From: Gemmatimonadales bacterium
Lineage (GTDB): Bacteria > Gemmatimonadota > Gemmatimonadetes > Gemmatimonadales > GWC2-71-9
DNA length: 64,000 nucleotides
Reading direction: 5' to 3'
Assembly: GCA_013812695.1 (NCBI GenBank)
Contig: JACCSZ010000190.1
Location: 497-64,496 of the forward strand
Part shown: piece by piece, positions 45,332-47,334 of the stretch
Numbering within the stretch: the first letter of the stretch is position 1
Layout of the letters: each line of letters begins with the position of its first letter
The notes under the pieces: generated by a model
Seen by the model: the letters and a program-made list of their open reading frames with translations, nothing else
Databases searched by the model: none
What the model was told of the DNA's origin: nothing
Program-made: the position numbers and the translations under genes

Positions 45332-45936
45332 GCGGTCCCTCCCACGGCGGCCAGGATGCTCTCGGCGAGCTCGGCGATACCCAGCCGCGAGGTACTGCTG
45401 GTGAGCTGGAGCTGGTCGTCATGCAAGCCCAGGGCCACGGCGAGCGCACGGGTTCGCTGCGACTGCGCGGAGCGGGTCAGCTTGTCGCCCTTGGTCAGCG
45501 CCACCAGCACCGGGTGGCCGCTCCGGGCGAGCAGGTCCTGCATGTCCCGGTCGTCGCTCGACGGCTGGTGCCGCACGTCGAGCAGCCAGACCACGCCGGC
45601 CAGCGTCGGCCGCTCGAGCAGGTAGCGATCCACGAGCCGGCGGTACCCGGCGCGCGCGGTCTTGCCGGCCCGGGCCCACCCGTAGCCCGGCAAGTCGACC
45701 AGATAGAAACCGGGAAAGCGAAAGGCGTTGAGCAGGGTGGTCTTGCCGGGGGTCCCGCTCACGCGCGCGAGCCCGGGCCGGCCGGTGAGCGCGTTGAGCA
45801 GGCTCGACTTGCCCACGTTGGACCGGCCGATCAGCGCGACTTCGGGGAGCGGCGGGGAGAGCGTGACCAGCGGGTCGGGAAACGAGCCGACGAACTCGAC
45901 CGGCGCCGCGGAGAGCGGCGTCGGGAGCGCGGTCAC
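45328..45936 (-). CDS. engB: Ribosome-biogenesis GTPase EngB/YihA/YsxC
   Basis: G1 [15 protein letters not shown]3 DLPGYG, G4 TKGDK. The GTG start overlaps the clpX stop. Confidence 0.85.
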
Positions 45937-47207
45937 GCCTCGCGCTTCGTACGCGCGCGCTCGGTCACGATCAGGGGCGAGGTGCCCTCGGTGATCGCTT
46001 CCTTGGTGATCACGATCTCGCGCACGTCGTCGCGGTTCGGCAGGTCGTACATGATGTCGATCATCATCGTCTCGAGGATCGAGCGCAGCCCGCGGGCGCC
46101 GGTGCCGCGCTTGAGCGCCTTCTCCGCCACCGCGCGGAGCGACTCGGGATCGAAGGTGAGCCCCACGTCCTCGAGCTCGAACAGCTTCTTGTACTGCTTG
46201 GTGAGCGCGTTCTTGGGCTCGACCAGGATGCGCATGAGCGCCTCCTCGTCCAGGGCCTCGAGCGACACGACCACCGGAAGGCGGCCGACCAGCTCGGGAA
46301 TGAGTCCGAAGCGGAGCAGGTCGTCCGGCTCGACCTCGGCGTAGGGATGCTTGCCGCCGGGTGTCGTGGCGGCGGCCCTGGCGCCGCCGTTGAAGCCGAT
46401 CTGCTGGCGGCCGGTGCGGGCCTCGATGATCTTTTCGAGCCCGTCGAACGCGCCGCCGCAGATGAACAGGATGTCCTTGGTGTTGATCTGGATGTATTCC
46501 TGCTGCGGGTGCTTGCGGCCGCCCTGCGGCGGCACCGAGGCGATGGTGCCCTCGAGAATCTTGAGCAGCGCCTGCTGCACGCCCTCACCCGACACGTCGC
46601 GCGTGATGCTCGGATTTTCCGACTTCCGCGCGATCTTGTCGATCTCGTCGATGTAGACGATGCCCCGCTGGGCCCGCTCGACTTCGTAGTTGCAGCTTTG
46701 CAGCAGCTTCTGGATGATGTTCTCGACGTCTTCACCCACGTAACCTGCTTCGGTCAGTGTGGTCGCGTCGGCCATCACGAATGGCACGTCGAGCATGCGC
46801 GCCAGGGTCTGGGCCAGCAGCGTCTTGCCGGAGCCGGTGGGCCCGATCAGCAGGATGTTGCTCTTGGTGAGCTCGACATCGTCCTTCTTGGCTTTTTCCT
46901 TGTGGCGAAGCCGCTTGTAGTGGTTGTACACGGCCACCGAAAGGCCGCGCTTGGCCGGCTCCTGGCCGATCACGTAGTTGTCGAGGTTCGCCTTGATCTC
47001 GGCCGGCGTGGGCAGGTCGCCGCGCGCCTCGCGCTGGTCTTCGCCGGTGGGCAATTCGTCGCGGATGATTTCATTGCACAGGTCGATGCACTCATCGCAA
47101 ATGAAGACCGAGGGCCCCGCGATCAGTTTCTTCACCTCATGCTGGCTCTTACCGCAAAAGGAGCAGTAAAGCGTTTTCTCGCTCGAAGAGCCTTTTTTCT
47201 CGGCCAT
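45933..47207 (-). CDS. clpX: ATP-dependent Clp protease ATP-binding subunit ClpX
   Basis: Zinc-finger N-terminus [30 protein letters not shown]. Walker [30 protein letters not shown]. Confidence 0.95.
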
Positions 47208-47240
47208 GGGGACCTTGCCTCGTTGCTTGAGATTTCAATG

Positions 47241-47288
47241 ATAACTAAATAAACAACGGCGTTTCCCGTGTTACAGGAAACGCCGTTG
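47241..47288 (-). terminator. Hairpin plus T-tract between clpP and clpX (terminator/attenuator)
   Basis: On the minus strand: CAACGGCGTTTCC-tgtaacacg-GGAAACGCCGTTG (perfect 13-bp stem) followed by TTTATTTAGTTAT. Confidence 0.5.
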
Positions 47289-47334
47289 CTGCTATGCAAC
47301 CAGAGGTATGAGCGGCTCGCGGCTCGCTGGTTCC

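Follow-up and report, generated by a model that had tools for sequence, protein, structure and literature searches.

The window analysed here, a stretch of 64,000 nt from an 84.7-kb contig of a Gemmatimonadales MAG, is almost certainly an inter-genome misassembly, in which DNA of a Gemmatimonadales bacterium (positions 1-46631) has been fused to DNA of a Variovorax/Polaromonas-like member of the Comamonadaceae (46670-64000). The switch from one genome to the other falls within 46632-46669, that is, at about residues 180-192 of ClpX, and the features on both sides of it are compiled in Table 1, where the two source organisms are referred to as parent A and parent B. By its sequence the protein encoded across the join is a ClpX, but probably not a natural one, as it looks like a hybrid of two orthologues, and such a hybrid is probably not found in any cell. 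As an assembly artefact that was carried into the MAG, the feature represents no biological novelty.

Table 1. Features of the window, with their positions, strand and origin (parent A, Gemmatimonadales; parent B, Comamonadaceae)
Feature	Position	Strand	Origin	Remarks
Parent A segment	1..46631		soil Gemmatimonadales	includes the 232 C-terminal clpX codons, engB and the ApbE/FMN_bind/porin cluster
engB/YsxC-type GTPase gene	45328..45936	-	parent A	Pfam MMR_HSR1, E 3.9e-19
Hybrid clpX	45933..47207	-	residues 1-180 parent B; 181-192 ambiguous; 193-424 parent A	424 aa; N-terminus as quoted in the first-pass annotation
Crossover zone	46632..46669	-	apparently identical in both parents	38 nt
Parent B segment	46670..64000		Comamonadaceae (Variovorax/Polaromonas-like)	G+C 0.649
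clpP	47335..47943	-	parent B	Pfam CLP_protease, E 5.8e-87
Sigma-32-like motif	48015..47990	-		CTTGCAG-N13-CCCCAT; weak; upstream of clpP
tig, trigger factor	48094..49410	-	parent B	Pfam Trigger_N, FKBP_C, Trigger_C
tRNA-Leu(tag)	49440-49526	-	parent B	upstream of tig; ARAGORN
Genes of an RND efflux pump: AcrB-type transporter, membrane-fusion protein	49596..53970	-	parent B	Pfam ACR_tran, E 1e-165; HlyD_3/HlyD_D23

Two lineages within one gene and on its two sides

The clpX open reading frame is intact and in frame, and it encodes the zinc finger, the AAA+ module and the C-terminal small (lid) domain, with precomputed Pfam matches to PF06689, PF07724 and PF10431. The zinc finger is of the C4 type and N-terminal, and the AAA+ module has Walker A and B; the sequence shows CSFCGK, further on a 12-residue stretch, and IVYIDEIDK. 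The full-length protein was compared with one genome per species, and no match exceeded 75% identity, which is unusually low for ClpX. The top matches were a mixture of Variovorax, Polaromonas and other Burkholderiales with Gemmatimonadales MAGs. Both the low values and the mixture arise because the identity differs from segment to segment.

Over residues 1-185, the protein is 94.6% identical to that of Variovorax L001, 93.0% to that of Polaromonas L003 and 91.9% to that of Variovorax L002, while over residues 250-424 its identity to the same three loci is only about 51%. Four Gemmatimonadales loci (L005, L018, L020 and L030) gave 63-65% identity over residues 1-195, 100% over residues 191-215 and 61-73% over residues 250-424. 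When residues 193-424 alone were used for the homology search, many ClpX proteins of 415 aa were recovered at 90-95% identity; among those with a named source almost all came from Gemmatimonadales, and the best of them reached 94-95%. The best full-length match was P0003, a Gemmatimonadales ClpX encoded on contig L081, which is 94% identical over residues 193-424. From residue 181 onward it is near-identical to the window protein, whereas over residues 1-180 the two differ far more strongly. Over the N-terminal part, the identity to Gemmatimonadales ClpX was only about 62-65%. The same reversal is seen in the DNA: the N side of clpX (47207-46670) is 87.9% identical to Variovorax L001 and 66.2% to Gemmatimonadales L081, and the C side (46631-45933) is 65.4% and 91.0% identical to these two, respectively. 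Moreover, the hybrid ClpX was met in a public protein collection by homology search, as a single-member cluster, and exact-protein look-ups with the hybrid ClpX and with Tig returned no match.

The flanking regions are divided in the same manner. On the left, positions 35686-47012 of the window are collinear with L081, a Gemmatimonadales-type contig of 263 kb, at 78-81% DNA identity. This contig has the order tig-clpP-clpX-engB-ApbE-Aq_1264_TM-FMN_bind, followed by further genes, and it shows the same 4-nt overlap of clpX and engB as the window, where the GTG start of engB (45936) overlaps the clpX stop. The order tig-clpP-clpX-engB is also found in the Gemmatimonadales MAG L005, whose EngB is 60% identical to that of the window. 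On the right, the matches of ClpP, Tig and the AcrB-type protein belong to Variovorax, Polaromonas, Hydrogenophaga and Limnohabitans loci. ClpP is 84-87% identical to its counterparts in syntenic Comamonadaceae loci, Tig is 84% identical to those of Variovorax and Polaromonas, and the AcrB-type protein is 77-80% identical to proteins in syntenic position in L002, L004, L007 and L008. In L001-L003, tig is preceded by tRNA-Leu(tag) too, and the gene after clpX in Variovorax L001 is lon. Since both parents carry tig-clpP-clpX, the hybrid resembles a normal operon.

Most of these points had been anticipated by the first-pass annotation. Its central claim, that the switch lies inside clpX, is borne out by the opposite identity of the two halves in both protein and DNA. 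Compared separately, as it had proposed, the clpX halves and the flanks have their best matches in different phyla, and sequence comparison places one half and its flank in the Comamonadaceae and the other half and its flank in the Gemmatimonadales. It had described ClpP, trigger factor and the ClpX N-terminus as Burkholderiales-like, and they are closest to Comamonadaceae; it had called the order tRNA-Leu-tig-clpP-clpX betaproteobacterial, and the same order occurs in the Variovorax and Polaromonas loci; and its expectation that betaproteobacterial clpX is followed by lon and not by engB agrees with the locus L001. The overlap of the engB GTG start with the clpX stop was correctly read as well. 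Its statement that the gene orders on the left are not proteobacterial holds for clpX-engB, which is seen in Gemmatimonadales L005 and L081. The sigma-32 type promoter that it assigned to the right side has a counterpart in a motif before clpP, but the motif is weak.

Composition also changes across the window. As had been suspected, the G+C content is lower to the right of clpX, with 0.706 for positions 1-46631 and 0.649 for positions 46670-64000; in windows of 2 kb it ranges over 0.69-0.74 as far as about 46 kb, and then over 0.61-0.68 from 46 to 64 kb. The REP family had been reported as confined to the left part, and the blastn matches of the four REP elements tested indeed all lie left of 44.6 kb. 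The tetranucleotide comparison that had been proposed gave a mixed answer: the signatures of the two sides do differ, with a mean correlation of 0.80 within the left part against 0.68 between left and right, but some left-right pairs reach 0.85, and a difference as modest as this does not settle the matter by itself.

Position of the join and depth of the flanks in public runs

Comamonadaceae-type residues end with Q180, and Gemmatimonadales-type residues begin with A193, which stands in a 10-residue segment that differs from KISRKSDNPS. Between the two lies the ClpX Walker B motif (12 residues, after an E), which is encoded by the 38 nt of the crossover zone. The bounds of this zone were taken from contigs of public sequencing runs: the contig of parent B in run X2 starts at 46632, and contigs of X1 and X4 agree with the window as far as 46669 and turn into Gemmatimonadales-type sequence after it. 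As far as these contigs show, the 38 nt appear to be identical in both parents. The summed depth rises to 120-360x within 46623-46664, which indicates that many members of the community share those words. The junction had earlier been put near 46.3 kb, which is about 350 bases off, on the strength of codon endings. This argument found no support: GC3 along the gene was tried as a locator of the join and rejected, as it is high to either side and has its best change-point at codon 56.

The depth values (Table 2) are those of Logan contigs, which are unitig-like pieces with k=31 and not mapped reads, from eight public runs of five studies, and they cover the window outside positions 20001-26700. 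The public runs in which the stretch occurs are all metagenomes of soil, biocrust or sediment.

Table 2. Depth of the two flanks of the join in eight public runs
Run	Left flank	Right flank
X1	~10-16x	patchy, ~3x; slightly different strain
X2	~0-2x	37.3x; one contig of 21,184 nt
X3	~5-6x	~0
X4	~5x	~0
X5	~6-10x	~0
X6	~4x	~0
X9	~0	~40x; strain roughly 97.5% identical
X10	~3x	~0

Across these runs, the abundance of one flank does not follow that of the other. Five runs from four studies (X3, X4, X5, X6 and X10) contain the organism of the left flank but not the right flank, and two (X2 and X9) contain that of the right flank but not the left one. The presence of a sequence is shown more reliably by Logan contigs than its absence; even so, in the runs that lack the right flank the left one is tiled almost completely, at 3-10x, and its depth is uniform in X1 (10-16x), X3 (5-6x) and X5 (6-8x). 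The contig of X2 covers 46632-64000, differs from the window by a single mismatch over 17,369 nt and extends 3.8 kb beyond the end of the window.

Both organisms are present in X1 (about 13x left and 3x right), so they do occur together in one sample. The X1 contig that runs past 46669 encodes AGEFNVAECE before a 12-residue stretch, in exact agreement with the Gemmatimonadales ClpX P0003. Most simply, this continuation would be the native upstream part of the clpX of parent A. By analogy with Variovorax, the native clpX of parent B would continue to lon. The first-pass annotation had asked for continuity across the gene. No Logan contig in the eight runs crosses 46632-46669 with both flanks; taken with the uncoupled depths, this speaks for a chimera, as does the taxonomy of the halves and flanks. 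The pieces break there by construction, because any 31-mer at the join would also occur in one of the two parents; for this reason, a k-mer index cannot separate the chimera from its two parents.

Origin of the join

The misassembly could have come about in the following way. Two unrelated soil bacteria, each with tig-clpP-clpX, would share the 38-nt stretch of clpX over Walker B, and in any de Bruijn graph whose k does not exceed 39 both genomes would pass there through a single node, entered by two paths and left by two. The assembler may then have left this node by the wrong branch. As a result, the 3' part of clpX and the downstream region of parent A would have been fused to the 5' part of clpX and the upstream region of parent B, and, with Gemmatimonadales DNA making up about 73% of the window, the whole contig would have been binned into a Gemmatimonadales MAG. 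The suggestion made from the letters, that an assembler mis-joined two genomes in a highly conserved gene, fits this shared stretch of 38 nt.

The main alternative is that the join is real, and that homologous recombination in the conserved core of clpX recently brought 17 kb or more of Comamonadaceae DNA into a Gemmatimonadales strain. We consider such an event highly improbable, although the intact, in-frame reading frame with all ClpX domains would agree with it, as would the presence of both organisms in X1 and the local order tig-clpP-clpX common to both parents, by which recombination would preserve the operon structure. A transferred block would be expected in joined form wherever the recipient occurs. 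However, only the left flank is present in X3, X4, X5, X6 and X10, where it is tiled at 3-10x, and only the right one, at 37x, in X2; the X1 contig that matches up to 46669 runs on into a Gemmatimonadales-type clpX. Moreover, the right flank is only one base in 17 kb away from the free-living parent B in X2, so a real recombination would have to be very recent. An identity of 38 nt is very short for homologous recombination between phyla. On this view, the 5' part of the strain's own clpX, together with its clpP and tig, would have been replaced, and the hybrid ClpX would be functional. If the join were genuine after all, for which we see very little chance, recombination via the 38 nt would have combined a foreign zinc finger and large AAA+ subdomain with the native small subdomain, next to a foreign ClpP and trigger factor.

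It might also be supposed that the window belongs to one genome only and contains a region of atypical composition, for instance an old island or highly expressed housekeeping genes of lower G+C, with neither a chimera nor a recent transfer. The variation of G+C within the left part (0.67-0.74) and the high tetranucleotide correlations of some left-right pairs (up to 0.85) speak for this explanation, but it would have to account for an abrupt switch of identity inside one gene, in protein and in DNA, for right-flank proteins that are 80-86% identical to and syntenic with those of Comamonadaceae, and for flank depths that are uncoupled across runs. We therefore regard it as extremely improbable, and the misassembly of two genomes is the explanation kept below.

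Consequences for the MAG and comparison with known chimeric contigs

At least 17.3 kb of the window (46670-64000) is Comamonadaceae DNA within a Gemmatimonadales MAG, and there is probably more beyond the end of the window, since the contig is 84.7 kb long and the parent B contig of X2 runs 3.8 kb past that point. Whatever is reported for this genome right of 46.67 kb, including the genes for the RND efflux pump, clpP, tig and tRNA-Leu, belongs to another phylum. On the 84.7-kb contig, the MAG is probably without its own tig, clpP and 5' part of clpX, by which the completeness and the contamination estimated from markers would be distorted. The 424-aa hybrid ClpX could in turn mislead phylogenies, screens for HGT and structure-function comparisons. 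The sequence right of about 46.67 kb should therefore be taken out of the Gemmatimonadales genome, and the ClpX of 424 aa is best regarded as an artefactual hybrid. The value of the result is one of quality control and it adds no new biology. As a lesson, an intact open reading frame and a seamless sequence are no guarantee of a join, and a breakpoint can be narrowed down to 38 nt from public data alone.

When the window is set beside the ClpX loci of Variovorax and Polaromonas (L001-L003), the likeness lies in residues 1-185 (92-95%) and in the syntenic clpP, tig, tRNA-Leu(tag) and AcrB gene, and the difference lies in the C-terminal 175 residues (about 51%) and in the downstream gene, which is engB in the window and lon in L001. 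With the Gemmatimonadales loci (P0003/L081 and L005), it shares the order tig-clpP-clpX-engB, with the best Gemmatimonadales ClpX proteins residues 193-424 (94-95%; 94% for P0003), and with L081 also the 4-nt overlap of clpX and engB and the downstream ApbE/FMN_bind cluster. It differs from them in residues 1-180, which are far more diverged, and in that clpP and tig of Gemmatimonadales type are absent from the window.

Interspecies chimeric contigs that arise at repeats or conserved regions have been reported as common in MAGs (bioRxiv 10.64898/2026.10.15.759294); according to this preprint, 69.4% of the near-complete MEGAHIT MAGs from CAMI data contain them. Misassemblies in metagenomic assemblies can be identified and corrected by the tool metaMIC (PMC9661791), and chimeric contigs are also targeted by DeepMAsED (bioRxiv 10.1101/763813) and DeepMM (bioRxiv 10.64898/2026.10.15.759294). 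The contig described here resembles the known interspecies chimeras in that two genomes are joined at a conserved region and binned into one MAG, and in that foreign genes enter the MAG while marker-based contamination estimates are not necessarily raised. Nothing essential differs from them, but this case is unusually clean, with a join between phyla, a breakpoint of 38 nt, an intact-looking open reading frame and a hybrid protein in a public collection.

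Neighbourhood of clpX in the two parents

The genes adjoining clpX were compared between the window and L081, a 263-kb contig of Gemmatimonadales type, and the coordinates are compiled in the table below. In the window, engB encodes a product of 202 aa and the 233-aa ORF adjoining it had no Pfam match, whereas in L081 clpX is followed by one gene call with a product of 419 aa. This may be a fusion/split difference, or else a difference in gene calling. Since L081, too, carries a tRNA-Leu(tag) on the upstream side of tig, both parents may have this neighbour in common; if true, the hybrid operon appears still more normal. 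The clpP start is preceded, at a distance of about 50 nt, by a sigma-32-like motif that is a weak match to the consensus.

Coordinates of the features discussed
Feature	Location	Strand	Remarks
REP-like element	window 13778-13875		depth spike (region noted: 13341-14007 and 13853-13876)
engB + 233-aa ORF	window 44630-45936	-	two separate genes, 4-nt overlap
Sigma-32-like motif	window 48015-47990	-	CTTGCAG-N13-CCCCAT; weak consensus match
tRNA-Leu(tag)	window 49440-49526		upstream of tig
tRNA-Leu(tag)	L081 6127-6208		upstream of tig, 580-aa gene between
419-aa product	L081 11245-12504		gene after clpX

REP-like element and depth

Over the REP-like element, X1 reaches a depth of 48x and X3 one of 16x (both are among the public soil-type runs that contain the left flank), and these spikes fit a multi-copy repeat. 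The blastn searches with four REP elements gave matches only left of 44.6 kb in the window, and a 24-nt core is also present in unrelated contigs of X2, a run that contains the right flank.

Contig extent and related ClpX records

In the public protein collection the hybrid ClpX forms a single-member cluster, recorded on one contig of 84,717 nt; the chimeric contig therefore exceeds the window. The X2 contig of the Comamonadaceae-like parent runs about 3.8 kb past the right end of the window.

Two other proteins matched by ClpX residues 193–424 are noted. P0002 (source 'src'; 499 aa) ranked second by score, with 492 bits, yet its alignment, which spans 90% of the query, reaches only 78% identity; this entry for ClpX, too, may be odd or chimeric. 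P0093, encoded outside the window on a 48-kb ENA contig, is 647 aa long; in it a ClpP domain (PF00574) precedes a full set of ClpX domains, and it has 88% identity to the C-terminal part of the window ClpX. A lost stop or a frameshift could account for it, or ClpP and ClpX could be genuinely fused in a Gemmatimonadales relative.
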